DNA of 14,626 nucleotides from Escherichia phage Ec1-ASingh, in the sequence record PQ561396; one strand, given 5' to 3'. A model generated the notes under the pieces. That model ran no database searches. It was not told where the DNA came from and saw only the letters and a list, made by a program, of their open reading frames with translations. Both the position numbers and the translations under genes were made by a program. Shown piece by piece: positions 2,928 through 14,038 of the stretch. The first letter of the stretch is position 1. Every line of letters begins with the position of its first letter.

Positions 2928-3109
2928 CACTTCGCCCCTTTGAATTTAAAATTGTTGCCGATGAGTTTCATATCCTGCGCGTATAACACGGTGAGATAGG
3001 ACCCCGTTAAAGATTCAGCAAAATAGATATTATTTTCTCTATGAAATGTGAAGATAACCGCTAACTCTCCAGTCTCTAAAATTTTCACCAACTGACCCTT
3101 CTTAAACAT
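2927..3109 (-). CDS. hypothetical protein (60 aa), first gene of the second leftward operon
   Basis: ORF track frame 2927..3118 begins with GTG; ATG at 3109-3107 has AGGAG 8 nt upstream. Begins MFKKGQLVKIL. Confidence 0.5.
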   Translation of the reverse strand: MFKKGQLVKILETGELAVIFTFHRENNIYFAESLTGSYLTVLYAQDMKLIGNNFKFKGAK

Positions 3110-3143
3110 AACCCTCACTCCTCTGTCTCGTTTCGATAAGTGA

Positions 3144-3172
3144 ATAGTATCCTATTATGTTGGGGTGTGCAA
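3144..3172 (-). promoter_or_regulatory. sigma70-like promoter (minus strand) with embedded operator GAATAG-TATC-CTATTA (3142-3157)
   Basis: Minus strand: TTGCAC (3172-3167), 17-nt spacer, TACTAT (3149-3144). Identical architecture to the promoter at 2007-2035. An extra GAATAG half-site at 3175-3180. Confidence 0.5.
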
Positions 3173-3214
3173 GAGAATAGTTACGCTGCCGTTGTGATTC
3201 TTTCGTTTCTTTAA

Positions 3215-3269
3215 AGAGTACGCAACGCAGTGGGTGGGCGTCAGCCCACCCCAGCGGAGTGAAGTACTC
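3215..3269. other. nested inverted repeats in a 430-bp non-coding region: perfect 8-bp GC hairpin inside a 7-bp outer inverted repeat
   Basis: Inner GGGTGGGC (3232-3239), loop GTCA, GCCCACCC (3244-3251). Outer AGAGTAC (3215-3221) and GTACTCT (3263-3269). No U-tract on either strand, so not a canonical intrinsic terminator. Confidence 0.5.
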
Positions 3270-3528
3270 TCTACCCTGCTTACGGCAACTATAGAAACTT
3301 TTAATTATCAGTGACTTGGGTATTTAGGTAGGATTAACAATAGACTTTGGCCCTTCCGAAAGCGCCAGCGGAACTACACTCAAGTGCTAAAGCACGCGTT
3401 GCGTTCCCTGCCGCTCCGCGGTCGCTTGCTCATACTTCACAAGCTCAGGTGGAGCTTATCATATTTTTAAGTAAAAGTCAATATCAGTAGCATCTTTTGT
3501 ATCTTAGTAACTTTGTGTGATGTTTTGG

Positions 3529-3557
3529 TTGCTTTTACATTCCCGCTATCCTATACT
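3529..3557 (+). promoter_or_regulatory. candidate sigma70 promoter for the rightward AlpA-like gene; no operator palindrome
   Basis: TTGCTT (3529-3534), 17-nt spacer, TATACT (3552-3557). AGGAG at 3576-3580 and ATG at 3589 follow. Confidence 0.35.
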
Positions 3558-3588
3558 CGTTTTCACCAAACAAACAGGAGATATAAAA

Positions 3589-3771
3589 ATGCAGCATTAC
3601 ATGACACAGAATGAAGTAGCTGAACGTATCGGGGTGACACGTCAGACAATTAATAACTGGTTGCGCAGCGGTAAATTCCCAGATTGCTGTATTAAGGTTA
3701 TGGGTCGCCGTTTACCTGGGACATTTGACCGTAATAAAGTTGAGGCGTGGATTAAGGAGAACGTGAAATGA
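3589..3771 (+). CDS. AlpA/excisionase-like HTH DNA-binding regulator (60 aa)
   Basis: ORF track frame 3517..3771, start moved to ATG 3589 (AGGAG 8 nt upstream). MTQNEVAERIGVTRQTINNWLRSGKFP matches the AlpA/Xis-type helix-turn-helix pattern. Confidence 0.7.
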   Translation: MQHYMTQNEVAERIGVTRQTINNWLRSGKFPDCCIKVMGRRLPGTFDRNKVEAWIKENVK

Positions 3772-4058
3772 AAGGTGTAATTTTCCACGATAAAGAAAAT
3801 GACAGTGCTTATATGGTTTATTTAGTGCAAGGCGAGTACGCGTTGTGCTTTAACGTTTCTTGTAAGCTGGACTCTTATTCACCGTTTTGCGTTACAGACG
3901 AATTGCAGTTGATTAGTCTCCGAAGACTCAGCGCAATGACGGCTTCCATAGACGTATCTGACCACTTAACGTACGTTTATCATTATTTCGGTTATGAGTT
4001 GGTTGCGGATTATTTTGAAGAGTATAAAAATTTGCTGGGTGAGTTAGCAAACCGGTAA
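3768..4058 (+). CDS. hypothetical protein (96 aa)
   Basis: ORF track. ATGA overlap with the AlpA-like gene (ATG 3768-3770, TGA 3769-3771). Confidence 0.6.
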   Translation: MKGVIFHDKENDSAYMVYLVQGEYALCFNVSCKLDSYSPFCVTDELQLISLRRLSAMTASIDVSDHLTYVYHYFGYELVADYFEEYKNLLGELANR

Positions 4059-4063
4059 AAAGA

Positions 4064-4089
4064 AACCCCAACGCCAGAACGTCGGGGTT
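4064..4089 (+). other. imperfect 10-bp hairpin just after the stop of the 96-aa gene (weak terminator or RNA-stability element)
   Basis: AACCCCAACG (4064-4073), 6-nt loop, CGTCGGGGTT (4080-4089), one mismatch. Only UU follows on the plus strand. Confidence 0.3.
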
Positions 4090-4127
4090 AAAGTACAAAT
4101 CATCAAAGTAAGCATAAGGATTATACA

Positions 4128-4256
4128 ATGACAAAGTTAATAGTTCCACAGCTACGCCGCCAGAAACACGGCGCTGATTTCTTCGCACCGGTAAAGATGA
4201 ACCGCGCAATGCGCCGTATGCAGGAAGCCTTAGAACGTGCGGAGAAAAAGAAATGA
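4128..4256 (+). CDS. small basic ORF (42 aa); not in the ORF track
   Basis: Hand translation: ATG 4128 with AAGGA 7 nt upstream; stop TGA 4254-4256 overlaps the primase ATG at 4253 (ATGA). Product MTKLIVPQLRRQKHGADFFAPVKMNRAMRRMQEALERAEKKK. Confidence 0.35.
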   Translation: MTKLIVPQLRRQKHGADFFAPVKMNRAMRRMQEALERAEKKK

Positions 4257-6487
4257 ATATTGTTTTTGCAACGCTGCGTAACACATTCGATAAAAACCCT
4301 GTAGCACGTGAAATGCCGCTGGAGCAGTTCGTAGAGTATGTCTGCGATACATCGAAGCGTTTATCCGTGGACCCGTCATGGACTAAGGAAGAGTACGACG
4401 CCGCCAAGATTAAACAGAAAGCTATTGCACCTGTTGGTGGTCGCCGTAAAAACGCTATCCTGGAAGACAGTGTGGTTAAGTTCGACTTCGACCATCTCAA
4501 CCGTACTCAGTACCGCGACCTTACCCGCAAATTCAAGAACGCGCCATTCTTCAATATTCTGCACACAACGGCGTCGCACCAGCACGCGTGTAAAAACGGG
4601 GATTACGCCTTCCGCGTTCTGGTTCCGGCTCGCACGCCGTTTAACTCTAACGACGCGTGGATGGTGCAACGAGCTATTTGTGCAGAGTTAGAAATAGACG
4701 AAGCCTTGCGTGACCACTGCACAGAAGACGGCAACCGCCTTATCTACCTACCGCATAAAGAGTCGAAGATAACGGTTACAGAAGGTCGTGTTATCCGTGC
4801 CGAGCGGTACATCAAGAAAGCCGAAGAGATGGGGTTGTGTAAACGCGAAGCTAAGACACTTGCCGCCGATGAGCATGGGCTTAACGCTGATATAGCGCAT
4901 TTCTGCGAAGCCGAGCTTGGTCTTGACGCTTTATCTTCCGGGCGCGGGTACGAAGTGCCATGCCCTAACGAACATCTGCATACAGGCAAAGGCTCCACCA
5001 GCATCATGCTTGATGGTAAAGAAGTTCGCTTCGTGTGTCAGCACACAAACAACGGCGCTTGCACTGAGCTTAACCGCCGACAACATTTGGCCCTGCGTAT
5101 GTGCGGCCTTCCGGACGAGCTTAACGTAGACAAGCAACCTATCAGTATTAACAGCATTCGTGCGGCTCTGCCTGATTTACCAGATGAAGAGATTGAAGAA
5201 CTGCACCGCACCGAGAACGAGGATCCTGTAACTTGCAGCCTGGAAGACCTTGAAGAAGAGGACGAGTTACCAGAACCGGTAAAGGCTGATTTCGTCGTTG
5301 AAGGGTACATGCCATCAGATTGTATATGGGATATTGTCGGGGAATCTGGCACGTACAAATCATTCTATACGCTGGGGATGATGTATCTCAGCGCCGCCGG
5401 ATACCGGTTTGCGGGGGCGGACACCCAGCGTTGCCACCATTTTTATATCGACGGTGAAGGCGGTGCAGCTACACGCACACGTATTGATGCACTCGCGGCT
5501 AAATATGGCGCGGAAGGTAAAGATTATGTACATGTCATCGATATGGGAGAAGTCGGCAAACTGAAAAGCCTGATTAAGTTAATGCGCGAAACTGCTGGCG
5601 ACGAGCCAATTGGGATGGTCGCGTTCGACACCCTCAACCAGACGCTGGCCCTTACGATTGATAAGTTCGACGAGAACAGTTCCTCGACGGCAATCGGCAT
5701 GGGTAAAGTTATCGCCATCCTGAAAGAAGTACGCGATGCGACTAAAGCCGCGGTAGGCGTCGTCCACCATACACCGAAGGGTGGCAAGAAAGCCCGTGGC
5801 AGCGGCGCTCTGTATGCAGGCGTTGATGTGGAACTGACAATCGAACGTGCCACCGACCGTCAGATAAACGTATATCACTCTAAATTTAAGCACGGGCCGC
5901 AGCAGAAAACGGTTGGCATGGTGCTGGAGTCGGTACAGTTCCGTGAAGCACCACCGCCGAAAGAGTACCGCGCTGTTGAATTCCTTGGCAGCACAGAGGA
6001 ATACGGCACAATCGTAAACCTGGACCTGCCTGAGCCGCACAAGGCACTTGTGCTGATGCCGTGGGGGTTCGAACCGTTCAAGACCGACGAGGAGAAAGAG
6101 CGTGAAGAAGGGATGGCAAAGGAAGGTAAAGAAAATGTACGTAAAACCGTAGAGAACGCCGTCAACAGTTCGGAAGCCACGATACTCGCGGCGTTTGAAC
6201 TGGCGGAAGGAACCTACAACGGCAACGAAGGCATCACGGTAGCCGCAGCGAATAAGCTCGCACAGTCCGACCCTAACGCAAAGGCGTTCAACTCCAAAGA
6301 AGCCATAGAACGCGGGAAGATTAAGAAAATGGTTGAGGCCGGGTATCTTGTGCCTGGTACTGACGAAAATAATCAGATAATCCCTGGTCGCTACAGGCTT
6401 AACACCAGGATAACGGATAACAAAATTCCTAAGACAATATACGAACCGAATGAGATGCTGATAGTGACAGAGGAAGATTTGGAGTAG
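4253..6487 (+). CDS. replication protein, putative primase/helicase: N-terminal Cys/His-cluster domain, acidic linker, C-terminal RecA-like ATPase (744 aa)
   Basis: ORF track. C-terminal half has a P-loop-like GESGTYKS, Walker-B-like MVAFDT, VVHHTPKGG and RGSGALYAGVD, a pattern typical of RepA/AAA_25-type replicative ATPases. N-terminal half has CPNEHLH...CQHTNNGAC. The C-terminal assignment is stronger than the N-terminal one. Confidence 0.8.
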   Translation: MNIVFATLRNTFDKNPVAREMPLEQFVEYVCDTSKRLSVDPSWTKEEYDAAKIKQKAIAPVGGRRKNAILEDSVVKFDFDHLNRTQYRDLTRKFKNAPFFNILHTTASHQHACKNGDYAFRVLVPARTPFNSNDAWMVQRAICAELEIDEALRDHCTEDGNRLIYLPHKESKITVTEGRVIRAERYIKKAEEMGLCKREAKTLAADEHGLNADIAHFCEAELGLDALSSGRGYEVPCPNEHLHTGKGSTSIMLDGKEVRFVCQHTNNGACTELNRRQHLALRMCGLPDELNVDKQPISINSIRAALPDLPDEEIEELHRTENEDPVTCSLEDLEEEDELPEPVKADFVVEGYMPSDCIWDIVGESGTYKSFYTLGMMYLSAAGYRFAGADTQRCHHFYIDGEGGAATRTRIDALAAKYGAEGKDYVHVIDMGEVGKLKSLIKLMRETAGDEPIGMVAFDTLNQTLALTIDKFDENSSSTAIGMGKVIAILKEVRDATKAAVGVVHHTPKGGKKARGSGALYAGVDVELTIERATDRQINVYHSKFKHGPQQKTVGMVLESVQFREAPPPKEYRAVEFLGSTEEYGTIVNLDLPEPHKALVLMPWGFEPFKTDEEKEREEGMAKEGKENVRKTVENAVNSSEATILAAFELAEGTYNGNEGITVAAANKLAQSDPNAKAFNSKEAIERGKIKKMVEAGYLVPGTDENNQIIPGRYRLNTRITDNKIPKTIYEPNEMLIVTEEDLE

Positions 6488-6515
6488 GTAAAAAGAAAGG
6501 GGCGTTAAGCCCCTT
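6485..6515 (-). terminator. rho-independent terminator for the XRE repressor gene; its loop contains that gene's stop codon
   Basis: 7-bp stem 6497-6503 / 6509-6515, loop GTTAA (6504-6508) holding the TAA (revcomp of 6505-6507). U-tract on the minus strand (revcomp of 6485-6496 = TCTTTTTACCTA). No U-tract on the plus strand. Confidence 0.55.
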
Positions 6516-6720
6516 CACCGAACGCCAGCCACTTGGCGTCTACTTCCAGTACTTCCGCCAGTTTAAACAGCGTTGCCGGGCGGACGTCCTGAGTTACCCC
6601 AAGTGTCAGCTGGTTAATTGCGCCCTGGGAAACACCGGCCAGGACAGCCAGACGGCGCTGGGAGATGCCAAGTTCTTTACGGCGTTGTTCTACACGGATG
6701 CCTAGTTCAGATGGTTGCAT
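6505..6720 (-). CDS. XRE-family (Cro/CI-type) helix-turn-helix transcriptional regulator (71 aa)
   Basis: ORF track. LGISQRRLAVLAGVSQGAINQL is a textbook XRE HTH. AAGGAG 8 nt upstream of ATG 6720. Convergent with the primase gene, divergent from the rightward replication operon. Confidence 0.8.
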   Translation of the reverse strand: MQPSELGIRVEQRRKELGISQRRLAVLAGVSQGAINQLTLGVTQDVRPATLFKLAEVLEVDAKWLAFGEGA

Positions 6721-6740
6721 GTCAATTACTCCTTAGTTAG

Positions 6741-6770
6741 TTGATATGTGAATAGTACCATATTAATTAT
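6741..6770 (-). promoter_or_regulatory. operator GAATAG-TACC-ATATTA (6750-6765) over a candidate extended -10 promoter of the XRE repressor gene
   Basis: Minus strand reads TGGTACTAT (TG at 6760-6759, TACTAT at 6757-6752), about 24 nt upstream of the RBS. The -35 is poor. A plus-strand reading (TTGATA 6741-6746, 17 nt, TAATTA) is weak. Confidence 0.4.
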
Positions 6771-6784
6771 TTTAGAAAAGCCCA

Positions 6785-6813
6785 TTGACATGTGAATAGT
6801 TCGCTATTATAGT
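6785..6813 (+). promoter_or_regulatory. sigma70 promoter of the rightward replication operon with operator GAATAG-TTCG-CTATTA (6794-6809) in the spacer
   Basis: TTGACA (6785-6790), 17-nt spacer, TATAGT (6808-6813). GAGGAG at 6831-6836 and ATG at 6845 follow. Confidence 0.55.
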
Positions 6814-6844
6814 TAACCCATACCAAACGAGAGGAGAGAAACAA

Positions 6845-7366
6845 ATGTTAGAGAAATTCTTAGTATTACTGGAACGTTTCGTAGTTGCACATGAACTGAT
6901 TGCTGCGAACAGTGTGAAACCACAAAACAGCAAATCAGTAGGTGAATTAACGGTTGACGTCGCGGTAACGGGGGTAGAAACAGTTAAAAAAGAACTGGCT
7001 AAAGCACTTGAAGAAGTCGAGAAGGCGAAAGAAATCCCGGTGGAAGGCGAAGACATCGTTGACACTAAACCGGCAGAAGAAGAGAAGCCGAAACGCAAGC
7101 CGCGGAAAGCTAAAGTAGAGGAACCTTCGCCAGAGCCGGAAGAAGAGAAAGAAGAAGTCGATTATAAGTCTCTGCGCGACCAGATTCAGGCTATCGACGA
7201 TGCAATTAACGAAGGTCCGAGCGATGCTGCGTGTGATGACTCCGATGAACTGCTGGAAGAGTTCACCGGTAAGAAGATGAAGATTGCCGCAATTAAAGAC
7301 GAAGACCTGGCCGAGTACCTGGAACGCCTGACGGCAATCAAGAACAAGTATTTCGAAGAAGAATAA
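6845..7366 (+). CDS. highly acidic, low-complexity protein (173 aa), first gene of the rightward operon
   Basis: ORF track. Strong RBS. Glu/Asp-rich throughout with interspersed Lys (for example PAEEEKPKRKPRKAKVEEPSPEPEEEKEEVDY and ACDDSDELLEEF). Function unknown. Confidence 0.7.
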   Translation: MLEKFLVLLERFVVAHELIAANSVKPQNSKSVGELTVDVAVTGVETVKKELAKALEEVEKAKEIPVEGEDIVDTKPAEEEKPKRKPRKAKVEEPSPEPEEEKEEVDYKSLRDQIQAIDDAINEGPSDAACDDSDELLEEFTGKKMKIAAIKDEDLAEYLERLTAIKNKYFEEE

Positions 7367-8924: not shown

Positions 8925-8953
8925 TTGACACCTGAATAGCGAACTATTATAGT
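8925..8953 (+). promoter_or_regulatory. sigma70 promoter with operator GAATAG-CGAA-CTATTA (8934-8949) in the spacer
   Basis: TGTTGACA (-35 at 8925-8930), 17-nt spacer, TATAGT (8948-8953). Same architecture as 6785-6813. Drives the SSB-like and polymerase genes. Confidence 0.55.
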
Positions 8954-9704: not shown

Positions 9705-11906
9705 ATGAGTTACCTGTTCTTAGACTTTGAAACATTCTCCGAAGCCGATTTGAAGAAAGTCGGCTCCTACGCTTACGCCGAACACCCGTCAACCGAAGTG
9801 CTCATCTGTACCTATGCCTTTGACGACGAGCCTGTGCAGGTATGGGATTGCACCGACGGCAGCGACATGCCAGGCGATTTGCACCGCGCACTGCGTCGTC
9901 TGGTTAAACCGAACAGCCGCATCAAGATGGTATGGCACAACGGTGGACTTTTCGACAGGCTCATCATGAAGCACTGCTGGGGCTTTGATATTCCGGTAAG
10001 CAACACCATTGATACGATGATTTGGGCTTTTCGCCACGCGCTGCCTGGGTCGCTCGATGCGTTGTGCGAAGTGCTGGGCGTATCAGCGGACAATGCGAAG
10101 GATAAACGCGGCAAGGCTCTGATTCAGCGTTTTTCTAAACCAACGCCGAAGAACTACAAAATACGTCGCTACACCGCCGAAACACACCCGGACGAGTGGG
10201 CACTGTTCATCAAGTACGCCGTGAGCGACATCACCGCGATGCGTGAAGTCTTCCATAAGCTGCCGCGTTGGGGTAACTCAGAATTCGAGGACCGTGTACT
10301 GGAGCTGGACCAGTTAATCAATGACCGGGGGTTTAAGGTCGACGTTGTGCTGGCGGAAGCTGCGATTGAAGCCGTGGAAAAACACAAAGCGCAGTTACAG
10401 GAAGAAGCCCAACGAAAATACGGCGGCTCGCTTACTGGTAAGGACTTTCTGCCGATTCTGCGTGAGCTTGCCCCGGCGCACCGCATCCACAATGCGCAGA
10501 AGTCGACGCTTAATGACCTGCTTTCGGATGATGATTTACCCGACGACGCGCGCACAATTATCGAAATGCGCCTCGGGGCCGCGTCCACCGCATCAACGAA
10601 ATATAACCCTCTGCTGTTGGGCCGCTCGTCGGACGACCGCCGCCGCGGTTGTTTACAGTACGGCGGTGCAAAACGTACTCTGCGATGGGCGGGTAAAGGC
10701 TTCCAGCCGCAGAACCTGGCGCGCGGGTACTATCACGATGAGGAACTTGATAAAGGCATTTCAGCGTTACTTAAGGGTCGTGCACACCGCCGTTTTGATG
10801 TAGCCAAGCTGACGGCATCGACGGTCCGTAGCTGCATCATACCGGAAGCCGGGCACAAGTTTGTCGTAGCTGATTACTCTAACGTCGAAGGTCGTGGGTT
10901 AGCGTGGTTAGCAGGAGAAGAAACCGCGCTCGATACGTTCCGTGCCGGACTGGATATTTACTGTGTAACCGCAGGTAAGATGTTTGGCATGGACCCCGAC
11001 GATATTAAGAAAAACTTTAAGGAAATCAGACAGATAGGCAAAGCATGCGAACTGGGTCTCGGCTACGAGGGCGGCGTCGGAGCGTTCGTTACGTTTGCTA
11101 AAAACCTAGGTCTTGACCTTATTGAGATGGCAAAAACAATGGACGGGACTTTCCCCGACCACATCTGGGCTGCTACCGCACGTGGGTATGAGTGGGCGCG
11201 TATTCAGGAAGCCAAGCGACCACCGCATCCCGGTGAAAAGGATGACCGACCATCATATATTCTGGACAAGAAAGTGTGGCGCACATGTGATGCAATCAAG
11301 CGTATGTGGCGCGAGTCACACCCGGAAACAGTAGCGTTCTGGCGCGACCTTAAAGACGGAATTTTAGCCGCTGTTCGTAATCCTGGTCGTGAATTTTGGG
11401 CCGGGGCACACTTGCGCCGGAATGGTGAAAGGGCTATCCGCATATGGCGTACCGTAGAATCTGATTCGTCGGGCAGGAAGGTTCCTGGCTGGTGGTTGTG
11501 TATGGAGTTGCCGTCAGGCCGTATCCTCTCGTATCCGGGAATCGGCGTTAGTGTGACAAAGGAAACAGACGAAGACGGGCGGGTAAATACGAATGTGCGA
11601 ATCAAGTATCAGGGCGAAAACCAGTTAACCCGTCAATGGACTACCCTGTACACACACGGCGGCAAAGCCTGCGAAAACATTGTTCAGGCGCTGTGCCGTG
11701 ATTTACTCGCATATGCGATGATTAATGTTGAGGGTGGCGGGTATCCCATCGTGCTTTCGGTACACGATGAACTGGTATGTGAAACTCCAGATACGCCTGA
11801 TTACACGGTACATGATTTGGAAAAATTAATGTGCGCGTTGCCTGAGTGGGCAGAAGGCTTCCCTCTTGTAGCGGAAGGTGCGGAGATGAAGCGCTATGCT
11901 AAGTAA
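9705..11906 (+). CDS. family-A DNA polymerase with 3'-5' proofreading exonuclease, no 5' nuclease domain (733 aa)
   Basis: ORF track. Exo I LFLDFETFS, Exo II MVWHNGGLFD, Exo III YAVSDITAM. Pol motif A VVADYSNVEGRGLAWLAG, motif B RQIGKACELGLGYEGG, motif C LSVHDELV. Confidence 0.9.
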   Translation: MSYLFLDFETFSEADLKKVGSYAYAEHPSTEVLICTYAFDDEPVQVWDCTDGSDMPGDLHRALRRLVKPNSRIKMVWHNGGLFDRLIMKHCWGFDIPVSNTIDTMIWAFRHALPGSLDALCEVLGVSADNAKDKRGKALIQRFSKPTPKNYKIRRYTAETHPDEWALFIKYAVSDITAMREVFHKLPRWGNSEFEDRVLELDQLINDRGFKVDVVLAEAAIEAVEKHKAQLQEEAQRKYGGSLTGKDFLPILRELAPAHRIHNAQKSTLNDLLSDDDLPDDARTIIEMRLGAASTASTKYNPLLLGRSSDDRRRGCLQYGGAKRTLRWAGKGFQPQNLARGYYHDEELDKGISALLKGRAHRRFDVAKLTASTVRSCIIPEAGHKFVVADYSNVEGRGLAWLAGEETALDTFRAGLDIYCVTAGKMFGMDPDDIKKNFKEIRQIGKACELGLGYEGGVGAFVTFAKNLGLDLIEMAKTMDGTFPDHIWAATARGYEWARIQEAKRPPHPGEKDDRPSYILDKKVWRTCDAIKRMWRESHPETVAFWRDLKDGILAAVRNPGREFWAGAHLRRNGERAIRIWRTVESDSSGRKVPGWWLCMELPSGRILSYPGIGVSVTKETDEDGRVNTNVRIKYQGENQLTRQWTTLYTHGGKACENIVQALCRDLLAYAMINVEGGGYPIVLSVHDELVCETPDTPDYTVHDLEKLMCALPEWAEGFPLVAEGAEMKRYAK

Positions 11907-12027
11907 ACTGATTATCGCGGTACTGGCGGGATTCGCCGTCGGTGTCTACTGTCACGAGGGGCAATACGGCATGATGGTTGCCGTATTGGGCATGTTCATC
12001 GCAATTTATATGTGGGTGATGGAATGA
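11896..12027 (+). CDS. small ORF (43 aa) with two hydrophobic segments, candidate membrane peptide; not in the ORF track
   Basis: Hand translation: ATG 11896 overlapping the polymerase 3' end, GGAG 10 nt upstream, stop TGA 12025-12027. Product MLSKLIIAVLAGFAVGVYCHEGQYGMMVAVLGMFIAIYMWVME. Confidence 0.3.
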   Translation: MLSKLIIAVLAGFAVGVYCHEGQYGMMVAVLGMFIAIYMWVME

Positions 12028-12122
12028 AAATTTACTGGTTCTATGAAGAAGACTGCCGAATCTGTCCGCGCTGCGGGATTGAGCATACAAAACGTGAGGG
12101 GTGCATAGATGAGTACGCCTGA
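12024..12122 (+). CDS. small ORF (32 aa) with four Cys, possible zinc-ribbon peptide; not in the ORF track
   Basis: ATG 12024 overlaps the upstream TGA (ATGA). Product MKIYWFYEEDCRICPRCGIEHTKREGCIDEYA. Overlaps the VRR-NUC start by 14 nt. No clear RBS, so weak. Confidence 0.2.
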   Translation: MKIYWFYEEDCRICPRCGIEHTKREGCIDEYA

Positions 12123-12414
12123 GGGGCGCGTCCAAAAATACGCAAAAGAGCAATTCGAGGCCATTGGTGGCCTCGTTCGTAAACTTTCCTACGAAAATAG
12201 AGCGGGCGCTCCTGACCTGCTGGTAATTCTCCCTGGCGGCATAGTCTGGTTCGTCGAGGTTAAGAAAGACGAAAACACGAAGCCAGACCCACACCAGCTA
12301 CGGGAGCACGAGCGGATGCGTAAACGGGGCGCAAATGTTTTTGTCGTTGGCTCTATAAAACAGGTTGACGACCTAATAGAGGGCTATTATAGTAGCCACA
12401 CACCAACAATATAA
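12109..12414 (+). CDS. VRR-NUC domain nuclease (101 aa)
   Basis: ORF track. GAGGGG 7 nt upstream. PD-(D/E)XK core GAPDLLVILPGGIVWFVEVKK with downstream Gln (PHQLREHE), the pattern of VRR-NUC proteins. Confidence 0.75.
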   Translation: MSTPEGRVQKYAKEQFEAIGGLVRKLSYENRAGAPDLLVILPGGIVWFVEVKKDENTKPDPHQLREHERMRKRGANVFVVGSIKQVDDLIEGYYSSHTPTI

Positions 12415-12617: not shown

Positions 12618-14038
12618 GTAAGTTTCAAAGGCGCGAATACCAGAAGCTCATGACTTCGTTCATGTTGCAACACCCGCGCTGTAATATCTGGTGCGGTATG
12701 GGCGGCGGCAAGACCTCGTCGACGTTGTGGGTTCTCAATCGACTGTTCCGTAATGGGCAACTTAATGACGACGACCGAGTGTTAATTCTGGCTCCTTTAC
12801 GTGTTGCGTCAGGTACGTGGCCCGCGGAACAGGCACGTTGGAACTTCCCTTGTCTGCGCGTCGTAGATGCGACCGGTTCGGAGAAGCGCCGCATCGCGGC
12901 GCTGGAGTCTGACGCTAACGTGGTGTGCACGAACTACGAAGTTATCGAGTGGCTGATTGACTACTACGGCAAAGACGACTGGCCTTTTACTGTTATCGTT
13001 GCCGATGAGAGTACGAAGCTAAAATCTTTCCGCAGCCGTTCAGGCGGTAGTAAGAGAGCAAAGGCGCTTAGTAAAGTGGCGTTCGGTAAGGTTAAGCGTT
13101 TCATTAACCTTACGGGAACACCGTCACCGAACGGCCTCAAAGACTTATGGGGGCAGAACTGGTTTATCGACGCTGGCGAGCGCCTGGGGTCTTCATATAC
13201 AGCATTCACCGACCGCTGGTTTAACTCGGTACAGAAAGGCAAATCGGCTATGGCGCGCGAATACCACGCCCGCCCTGGCGCGGATAATGAAATTCACCAG
13301 AAGATGAAGGACATTAGTCTCACGATTGACGCTGCCGAGTGGTTCGGTTGTGAAGCGCCGATTATCGTCCCTGTTGAAATCGACCTGCCGAAGAAAGCGC
13401 GTCAGGCGTACCTAGATATGGAGGAAAAATTATTCGCGGAACTGGAAAGCGGCGAAGTTGAAGCGGCTAACGCAGCGGCGAAGACATCGAAGTGTCTGCA
13501 GATCGCATCCGGTGCCGTGTATGTGTCAGGGCCGGACGGAGAAGCAACCAAAGACTGGGAGAAAGTTCACGACACGAAACTGGATGCGCTGGAGTCCATT
13601 GTGGAGGAGTTACAGGGCGCACCGTTACTGGTGGCCTATCAGTTCAAGCACGAACTGGAGCGCATCCTTAAGCGATTCCCGCAGGCGCAGGCGTTTGCCA
13701 AAGGCGCTAAGGGTAATAAGCAGATGGAAGCGTGGAACCGTGGTGAAATACCTATGCTCCTGCTACACCCAGCCTCCGCAGGCCACGGGCTGTCGCTACA
13801 ACACGGCGGGCACCACATGGCCTTTATGAGTCAGGGGTGGAACCTAGAACATTATCTGCAGGTTATCGAGCGTATAGGTCCGGTAAGGCAGATGCAGTCC
13901 GGATACAAACGGTCTGTATTCATTTATCAAATAATAGCCCGAGATACTCTTGATGAAGTTGTCGCCGCGCGTACAGACGAGAAAAGGTCTGTACAGGACG
14001 AACTACTTAATTATATGAAGAGAAGGAGTAAGAAATGA
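12614..14038 (+). CDS. SNF2-family (DEAD-like) helicase / ATPase (474 aa)
   Basis: ORF track. Motif I GMGGGKT, Ia LILAPLRV, II VIVADESTKLK, III INLTGTP, V HPASAGHGLSLQ, VI QVIERIGPVRQ. Immediately follows the VRR-NUC gene, a common pairing. Confidence 0.8.
   Translation: MSKFQRREYQKLMTSFMLQHPRCNIWCGMGGGKTSSTLWVLNRLFRNGQLNDDDRVLILAPLRVASGTWPAEQARWNFPCLRVVDATGSEKRRIAALESDANVVCTNYEVIEWLIDYYGKDDWPFTVIVADESTKLKSFRSRSGGSKRAKALSKVAFGKVKRFINLTGTPSPNGLKDLWGQNWFIDAGERLGSSYTAFTDRWFNSVQKGKSAMAREYHARPGADNEIHQKMKDISLTIDAAEWFGCEAPIIVPVEIDLPKKARQAYLDMEEKLFAELESGEVEAANAAAKTSKCLQIASGAVYVSGPDGEATKDWEKVHDTKLDALESIVEELQGAPLLVAYQFKHELERILKRFPQAQAFAKGAKGNKQMEAWNRGEIPMLLLHPASAGHGLSLQHGGHHMAFMSQGWNLEHYLQVIERIGPVRQMQSGYKRSVFIYQIIARDTLDEVVAARTDEKRSVQDELLNYMKRRSKK

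Follow-up and report, generated by a model that had tools for sequence, protein, structure and literature searches.

Phage HK022 reads through distant terminators by means of put, an RNA site of two stem-loops that starts at about +3 of the transcript and is present in two copies at the heads of long operons (PMC9378689). For the Kagunaviruses, virulent E. coli siphoviruses of the Guernseyvirinae, a time-course RNA-seq paper classifies genes only and places a helix-turn-helix (HTH) gene among the early ones. We analysed a 14,626-nucleotide (nt) stretch of Escherichia phage Ec1-ASingh (sequence record PQ561396; hereafter the window), in which a gene-free divergent control region at positions 3110–3588 had attracted attention in an earlier note for a GC-rich hairpin. 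Comparison with related phages suggests that this region encodes a previously undescribed folded RNA, which appears to be read leftward, from the minus strand, starting at a conserved promoter. Like put, it is promoter-proximal and has a paralogue at the head of a second long operon.

A covarying RNA fold on the minus strand

The structured core lies at 3356–3446 (minus strand). Hairpin P1 (3444–3424, GCUUGU...ACAAGC) opens the predicted transcript and is followed by a long irregular stem, P2, capped by P3 (3421–3356). A covariance model, R1, built from 12 copies found in front of structural operons (S copies), matches the window at 3343–3452 with 103 bits and finds 60 copies in all. RNAalifold recovered the same architecture from an alignment of S copies only and, run separately, from one of early-region copies (E copies) only, and the minimum free energy fold of the single sequence agrees with it. 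An alignment made with MAFFT only and passed to RNAalifold with all copies missed the apical helices because of indels, a difficulty solved by class-wise alignment and the covariance model.

Substitutions within the stems preserve pairing. In alignment A3, 97.8% of cells pair, against 30–43% when the partners are slid by 1–3 columns, 8 pairs have changed on both sides and none of 500 shuffles scores as high for covariation, while alignment A4, which includes a divergent Jerseyvirus class, has 96.8% of cells paired and 10 pairs changed on both sides; the alignments behind all these pair counts were fitted to the model and consist of closely related sequences. Examples in A3 are the change C-G/U-A/A-U at one position of P2; the P3 stem occurs as GUGC/GCAC, GGAC/GUCC, GGGC/GCCC and CACG/CGUG. 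The Jerseyvirus class occupies the same genomic place and scores just 33–39 bits with R1. It differs in P1 (ACGCU-UUC-AGCGU), in the middle of P2 and in P3 (GGGCGC-CACA-GCGCCC), and keeps the base of P2 and the tail (ACCGCGG.GCGG ... UUCGGAAGGGCC). By this comparative measure the RNA fold, and not just the DNA, is under selection.

The coding strand of the RNA can be read from the same alignments. Cells with G.U number 108 and those with A.C 7; read as minus strand, 97.8% of cells pair, and read as plus strand, 87.8%. This difference, together with two G.U pairs that never vary, identifies the minus strand as the RNA strand. The commonest P3 loop, GUAA, is of the GNRA type and two others, GUUA and GUCA, are GNNA; these loops occur on the minus strand only. 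Directly 3' of P2 stands a conserved purine-rich tail, GAAGGGCC (3348–3355, minus strand), within a motif, UUCGGAAGGG, that is common to all variant classes. An A+U-rich leader spacer at 3272–3347 (minus strand) is weakly conserved and corresponds to an AT-rich tract that the earlier note placed at 3285–3350. Two pairings that could have formed an antiterminator switch (the P1 loop, 3433–3440, with 3259–3266; 3396–3409 with 3215–3228) were considered and set aside, as they are near chance and are not kept in relatives.

The region encodes no conserved protein. Open reading frames (ORFs) inside it are short, unlike among close relatives and broken by 1–2-nt indels, and across 3110–3588 none is kept in frame and length among relatives, in line with the gene-free stretch described earlier. 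Short proteins have nonetheless to be considered, because some GenBank records annotate coding sequences (CDS) of 33–59 amino acids (aa) here (CPT_Snoke_056, Bas74_0053/54) and because an AUG in the P1 loop, which might start a leader peptide, opens ORFs of 16–41 aa in many copies. Against this, ORF frames and lengths differ among close relatives, the fPoEco01 and Jerseyvirus classes lack the AUG, which elsewhere has no Shine–Dalgarno sequence before it, 1–2-nt indels are tolerated, and the substitutions in the stems are compensatory. In addition, the Snoke CDS coincides with a model match on the opposite strand. We give hardly any credence to a coding role. The earlier note had regarded a short coding gene in relatives as a result that would overturn its view; such annotations do exist, and we judge them probably spurious. 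CPT_Snoke_056 (L002 2252–2359) is almost exactly the interval of the R1 match (L002 2249–2358), and Bas74_0054/0053 (L131 622–801, 889–990) are annotated inside the non-coding leader region; all are probably mis-annotations, so that some of the "hypothetical proteins" annotated in these genomes are probably spurious.

The predicted leader promoter

Just upstream of P1 lies a leftward promoter, P_L1 (3453–3481, minus strand), with a -35 element TTGACT at 3481–3476, a 17-nt spacer, TG at 3461–3460 and a -10 element TAAGCT at 3458–3453; its predicted start is near G 3446. We aligned 49 distinct copies taken from IMG/VR and GenBank. The TG and the -10 element are invariant among them, as are five of the 6 positions of the -35 element, the other being conserved in at least 90%, and variation falls on the "n" of TGn and on several positions of the spacer and discriminator. 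The arrangement TTGACT-17-TGnTAAGCT is thus kept in 49 sequences, and variants such as TGtTACGCT (Jerseyviruses) and TGaTAACCT (L102 type) keep the pattern. As a pattern of conservation this is the signature of an extended -10 sigma-70 promoter, and P_L1 is predicted to fire. A simple promoter scan misses it because its -10 element matches the consensus at just 3 of 6 positions. A plus-strand "terminator" called at 3441–3457 was rejected, since it overlaps the P_L1 -10 element and start site and faces no incoming genes.

The -10 hexamer is related in sequence to the arms of P1 or recurs shortly after them. In the window the two read TAAGCT and GAGCTT (3453–3458 and 3439–3446), Jerseyviruses have TACGCT-ACC-TACGCT-TTC-AGCGTA (L080 ~2510–2535), and the early leader of Salmonella phage Ent2 repeats TAAGTT ~30 nt further downstream (L132 ~1283–1250). 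By analogy with the -10-like element in putL, the repeat could be a sigma-dependent pause signal; it is not universal.

The hairpin at the leader end

The hairpin GGGTGGGC-GTCA-GCCCACCC occupies 3232–3239/3244–3251 and is complementary at 8 of 8 positions, so the 8-bp GC hairpin reported at 3232–3251 stands. Its flanking repeat needs a small correction: AGAGTAC is at 3215–3221 as described, but GTACTCT lies at 3264–3270, one base from the 3263–3269 given, and a repeat search extends the two arms to a 10-nt, 90% inverted repeat (3212–3221/3264–3273). On the minus strand these elements form a compound hairpin (3214–3271) with an outer stem AGAGUAC/GUACUCU, internal loops, an inner stem-loop GGGUGGGC-UGAC-GCCCACCC (3251–3232) and then UUUAAAG. 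The inner GC stem is followed by ACUGCGUUGC and not by U residues; only the outer stem has UUUAAAG after it. A terminator scan finds nothing at the hairpin on either strand, which agrees with the earlier description of it as not a canonical terminator.

The compound hairpin stands ~100 nt past P2, and all copies of the leader have a GC-rich hairpin there. In the S copy it reads GCCCCGC-UUUAAG-GCGGGGC-UUUACUU, with one compensatory variant (GCCCUGC/GCAGGGC), and passes the terminator scan (L005 5896–5915). Snoke-type phages have GGUGCC-UUCG-GGCACC and a U-rich tail at the same position, the UUCG loop being present on the minus strand only, and Bas74 and Ent2 have GGGCAGG...CCUGCCC-UUUAGUU. Three unrelated GC hairpins therefore occur at the position of the one first noticed, each with its U-richer flank on the minus strand, and we take the hairpin to be the terminal stem-loop of a leftward leader unit. 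By its place in the sequence, the window hairpin is the positional equivalent of the terminator-like hairpin of the S copy. The earlier note had proposed a check on conservation of the hairpin across relatives. Its sequence does not persist, being replaced in some of them, but the replacement is always a GC-rich hairpin in the same position.

A unit with its own strong promoter and a GC hairpin at its end invites a further explanation: P_L1 could produce a trans-acting small RNA (sRNA) of ~215–235 nt, ended at the GC hairpin, that pairs with host or phage mRNAs. The structural copy would then be a second gene for the same sRNA, and a terminated leader could double as an sRNA, as StxS does at the lambda-like PR', a precedent for an sRNA derived from a leader (PMC7547250). 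The conserved unpaired stretches UUCGGAAGGGCC and GUCUAUUG would suit such a role, and in the early copy an independently regulated promoter stands apart from the unit, beyond the hairpin. Other features fit poorly. The U tails are short where they exist at all, conservation falls on the paired base of P2 rather than on a free seed, and a search of the phage genome, though not of host targets, found nothing complementary to the 12-nt conserved tail. The S copy, moreover, is a 5' untranslated region, its hairpin being ~20 nt before the ATG of the first gene and ~10 nt before the Shine–Dalgarno sequence, with no room for another promoter. We consider an sRNA possible but unlikely. Of the functions put forward in the earlier note, "a small RNA or long structured leader" is the one that gained support, although the informative structure turned out to be the fold at 3356–3446 and not the GC hairpin.

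Two copies per genome

The leader is present twice in fPoEco01, as an E copy (36922–37392) and an S copy (5687–5829). Both are oriented like the minus strand of the window, which is the direction of the operons downstream of them. The S copy heads the scaffold/capsid/tail operon in all relatives examined, and in Jerseyviruses a copy stands in front of the spanin-like/scaffold/capsid genes. Apart from the S-copy promoter, none is visible for the morphogenesis operon; in BUCT825 a strong terminator closes the preceding operon just 5' of the S copy. With no room for another promoter and a terminator upstream, transcripts from the S promoter must pass the hairpin. Further strong terminators lie on the coding strand within both operons: one at 2150–2129 of the window, and others in fPoEco01, which follow the capsid and tail-tube genes or lie at 13196–13215.

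E copies, judged by their model scores and replacements, are swapped freely. Those of the window, L031, L048 and L056 are S-like (103–116 bits), and other E copies score 59–76 bits. More distant relatives have other structured leaders before the structural operon, some of which retain CGGAAGGG. A tetranucleotide repeat, (CTCA)n, is found 5' of the terminal hairpin in E-copy leaders (3 copies in L002, 6 in L011), and L017 has a GTGA repeat at the corresponding place; this is a possible slippage-prone tract.

Structured leaders that can be exchanged for unrelated, equally structured ones would also suit a generic structural role in mRNA processing or stability. P2/P3 could be an RNase III-type site, as in T7 early mRNAs and the lambda N leader, or else the 5'-terminal P1 and the GC hairpin before the ribosome-binding site could protect a long mRNA from decay that depends on the 5' end. 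The ~23-bp stem of P2/P3 with its internal loops, the position of P1 at the very 5' end and the S-copy GC hairpin ~20 nt before the ATG, with or without a U tract, are as one would expect. The strong sequence conservation of the P2 base and 3' tail between divergent classes (ACCGCGG.GCGG ... UUCGGAAGGG) would be unusual for RNase III sites, however, and in the early copy ~100 nt and a promoter separate the hairpin from the nearest ribosome-binding site. Taken together, the two variants seem to us more doubtful than an sRNA.

The early copy adjoins the replication module, which includes a T7-gp4-like primase/helicase gene, and a strong promoter at this place could mark a transcription-primed origin like the T7 primary origin or T4 oriF/oriG, at which the RNA would form an R-loop in the A+T-rich stretch and prime DNA synthesis. 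The A+T-rich tract 3' of the promoter, the G-cluster GGAAGGG after the stem and a minimum of cumulative GC skew in the region are compatible with such an origin, and no initiator protein or iterons are evident, as RNA priming would allow. On the other side, the skew minimum is explained by the divergent orientation of the genes, the best-conserved copy lies in the structural cluster, where it acts as the sole visible promoter, the compensatory changes keep an RNA fold that an R-loop origin does not need, and K1H has no such element here. The lack of iterons in 3100–3600 counts the same way; a search for iterons or DnaA boxes found only scattered two-copy repeats of 8–20 nt in that interval. 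The A+T-rich tracts are present, and are explained as the leader spacer and promoter flanks. We regard an RNA-primed origin as improbable. The more general proposal of a replication origin or primase loading site in the earlier note finds no support: there are no iterons, a paralogue lies in the structural cluster, G.U conservation is confined to one strand and the skew minimum coincides with the switch of gene strand. Its proposal of a recombination site has no support either: the window holds no integrase or recombinase, and none of 5,426 E. coli genomes contains the element. What probability the readings discussed here leave over falls to pure DNA-level roles or something else.

Proposed control of terminator read-through

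The reading we favour, tentatively, is that of a promoter-proximal, cis-acting leader that controls terminator read-through. We prefer it because the S copy has the sole visible promoter of its operon, because there are terminators to pass, because selection acts at the RNA level and because the module is duplicated at the other long operon. Host sigma-70 RNA polymerase would start leftward at the extended -10 promoter (3481–3453), and the first ~100 nt of the transcript would fold into the 5'-terminal hairpin and the long irregular stem-loop, followed by the A+U-rich spacer and the GC hairpin. The nascent folded RNA would then act in cis on the polymerase, alone or with a phage or host factor. 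Polymerase modified in this way would read through the hairpin at the leader end and later intrinsic terminators; unmodified polymerase would stop at or near the hairpin and free an RNA of ~215–235 nt. HK022 put RNA and the PR'-6S-tR' unit of lambda operate in this manner.

A bolder version holds that the fold is a second, unrelated put-like RNA family, in which RNA alone makes E. coli/Salmonella RNA polymerase terminator-resistant and drives the ~20–30-kb late transcription of virulent Guernseyvirinae with neither a Q- nor an N-type protein. We hold this to be about as doubtful as a role in processing or stability. P1 and P2/P3 do start at about +3 of the predicted transcript, and fPoEco01-like genomes have two copies in the same orientation, as in the put architecture.

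Several observations weigh against read-through control or its put-like version. In the early copy an operator-controlled promoter, P_L2, follows the hairpin and precedes the genes, whose expression does not strictly depend on read-through there. K1H has no fold at the early position. The early leaders of Bas74 and Ent2 are unrelated to it in sequence but follow the same plan, in which a strong promoter and a hairpin at the 5' end are succeeded by a long hairpin rich in GC, a spacer rich in A+U and, last, a GC hairpin. The early copy can therefore be dispensed with or replaced. The window hairpin (3214–3271) does not qualify as an intrinsic terminator on either strand, having no proper U tract, and the Jerseyvirus-class hairpin UUAGCGUAU fails the terminator rule for want of one as well; the label "terminator" is apt just sometimes, and so only partly justified. 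Taken singly, the sequence has a folding energy within chance expectation (z ~ -1.6 for both strands); it is the comparison with relatives, with the closeness of the aligned sequences already mentioned, that gives significance, rather than the hairpin. With filters off, R1 scored at best 10.2 bits (E = 1.1) in the complete HK022 genome, outside the immunity region, and inspection of the put-region sequences and folds revealed no evident sequence similarity; the leader is not a member of the put family. Finally, the words "non-coding", "intergenic" and "promoter" do not occur in the Kagunavirus RNA-seq paper.

Kagunaviruses and Jerseyviruses belong to the phages isolated most often for therapy and food safety. 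A conserved, covarying leader in front of their morphogenesis operon, with a second copy in the early control region, offers a testable handle on the timing and upkeep of late transcription. Should it act on RNA polymerase in the manner of put, just one family of factor-independent antiterminator RNAs would be known before it, and none from virulent phages. Even as an sRNA or a stability leader it would be a new RNA family that is missing from Rfam.

Distribution in databases

Rfam 15 gave no match at gathering score in the whole window, and at E up to 10 the sole match in 3100–3600 was a chance snoRNA (14 bits, E = 5.8); in the relatives L003, L080, L131 and L132 nothing was found at E up to 0.1. 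ARAGORN detected no tRNA or tmRNA. As no copy occurs in the E. coli genomes, the element is not host-derived and not a prophage element. A scan of 185,579 species genomes for the conserved motif returned 31 matches, 30 of them chance matches in GC-rich bacteria and one real, on a 738-bp scaffold. That scaffold (L161, NZ_JACVEL010000048.1), from an assembly of Taishania pollutisoli (Bacteroidota), bears a Jerseyvirus-class leader copy of 38.7 bits and is probably phage contamination of the assembly. In metagenomes 37 of 72 loci were real, and the identifiable ones were ~44-kb Guernseyvirinae-like contigs; the metagenome loci, whose flanks were not inspected, provided no new genomic context. Literature searches yielded no description of this leader RNA.

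The early control region and its operators

The window belongs to a Kagunavirus by BLAST, and the closest records are fPoEco01 and fFiEco02, with ~94% identity across the region. Compared with the annotated fPoEco01, its minus strand carries a run of small genes, then holins, endolysin, terminase and structural genes. The plus strand is the replication module, with a 60-aa HTH protein, a T7-gp4-like helicase-primase, an exonuclease and others; an XRE-like regulator lies within this module on the opposite strand. For the first leftward gene, ATG 3109 fits better as a start than GTG 3118, the mechanical ORF start: GAGGAG precedes it by 8 nt, and PE1_051 of fPoEco01 is annotated as starting at the corresponding codon. 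The HTH gene, which runs rightward, begins with ATG 3589. The small-gene operon and the replication operon are therefore 479 bp apart (3110–3588), and the gap of ~430 bp in the earlier note is real but was measured short. Its statement that the window is compact everywhere else goes too far, as gaps of ~125–200 bp are found at 1975–2173, 4058–4253, 6720–6845 and 11906–12109.

BLAST of the region against 50,697 phage records resolved it into three parts. The first, 3119–3317 (query positions 1–199), is common to a subset of Kagunaviruses, and the second, 3131–3202, has 93% identity even in Salmonella Jerseyviruses. The third, 3338–3481, has ~82% identity in Salmonella and E. coli phages at another genome position, and wherever its homologues were checked they were un-annotated DNA 5' of spanin-like/scaffold/capsid genes. 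The region 3110–3588 is thus the early divergent control region of a Kagunavirus, mosaic in make-up.

The divergent promoters proposed earlier, at 3144–3172 leftward and 3529–3557 rightward, both fit and are both strongly conserved. The rightward one, P_R (plus strand; TTGCTT 3529–3534, 17 nt, TATACT 3552–3557), lies 5' of the Shine–Dalgarno sequence AGGAG and the 60-aa HTH gene and is nearly invariant in close relatives. The second leftward promoter, P_L2 (minus strand; TTGCAC 3172–3167, 17 nt, TACTAT 3149–3144), sits beyond the GC hairpin in a nearly invariant 100-bp block, with 93% identity in Salmonella Jerseyviruses. Its design is repeated near 2039–2011 (minus strand), after the strong internal intrinsic terminator of the leftward operon at 2150–2129 (minus strand). 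A plus-strand promoter at 3133–3161 was rejected for its poor -35 element, and because the minus-strand reading matches the twin at 2039–2011. Strong minus-strand hairpins with T runs in gaps of the rightward operon (4064–4089, 6495–6516, 12156–12175) may be bidirectional terminators.

A palindromic operator, AATAGTATCCTATT (3143–3156), overlaps the P_L2 -10 element and has an extra half-site, GAATAGT, at 3175–3181. The window contains 8 sites of the form AATAG-N4-CTATT, against 0.33 expected. They are embedded in rightward sigma-70-like promoters (6785–6813, 8925–8953, 12365–12393 and 6741–6770, plus strand) and in leftward ones (3172–3144 and ~2039–2011, minus strand), with palindromes also at 2164–2177 and 2006–2019. 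The motif corresponds to the PHIRE "phage promoter" motif (PMC9825357). A promoter for a phage RNA polymerase, as that listing has it, was set aside, since the sites resemble sigma-70 promoters and the annotation of fPoEco01, a close relative, includes no RNA polymerase gene. The palindrome-bearing promoters are probably one regulon under a phage repressor, for which the XRE-like 71-aa protein (6505–6720, minus strand) and the 60-aa HTH protein (3589–3771) are candidates.

The structural-operon copy of the leader promoter has a different palindrome that abuts its -35 element or lies just upstream of it: CTATTCGAATAG, GGAATAcTTTATTC or GGAATAAATTATTCC (L005 ~5690–5705; L003/L004 just 5' of -35; L080 ~2465–2485; L102 ~2095–2115). 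Their half-sites resemble those of the operator, and their placement would suit a class II activator or a repressor. No such palindrome accompanies the -35 element of the early copy in the window.

Comparison with known systems

The terminal hairpin resembles intrinsic terminators in having a GC-rich stem and a 4–6-nt loop and in closing a short transcription unit. As part of a phage leader, the long stem, irregular and interrupted by internal loops, recalls the RNase III hairpins of T7, and the hairpin at the extreme 5' end recalls stabilisers of the ompA type, but unlike these the leader strongly conserves the primary sequence of its stem base. With the nut sites of lambda and P22 (boxA + boxB, with N) it shares two leader RNA sites per genome and a small capped hairpin, P3, often with a GNRA-type loop. 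In nut sites the boxB loop is the recognition element, whereas the P3 loop is not conserved (GUAA, GUUA, UUUA, AUUA, CACA, UCACAA); there is no boxA, a similar-looking CGCUUUC being paired and covarying, and no N-like protein was identified.

The late control region of lambda (PR'-6S-tR') comes close in layout. It too has a constitutive-looking promoter and a leader of ~200 nt that ends in a hairpin, followed by a long operon with lysis genes, terminase, head and tail in the same order. The lambda late leader is not known to require a conserved RNA fold; the leader described here has one that covaries, and the window hairpin has no U tract. Unlike in the Q system of lambda, no Q-like protein is annotated in fPoEco01, and PHROGs named none among the ten window ORFs scanned. 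A terminated leader could persist as an sRNA in the way of StxS of Stx phages (PMC7547250).

A close parallel in architecture is HK022 putL/putR. The Kagunavirus leader is longer (~100 nt compared with ~70 nt), its P1 being short and its P2 very long, and belongs to virulent Guernseyvirinae rather than to a lambdoid phage. The put RNAs suppress termination without a further factor, by way of the zinc-binding domain of the RNA polymerase beta' subunit; for the leader, antitermination independent of protein is hypothetical. In both systems, nonetheless, a promoter-proximal RNA of two bulged stem-loops starts a few nt from the 5' end of the transcript, and two paralogous copies per genome each head a long, terminator-containing operon.

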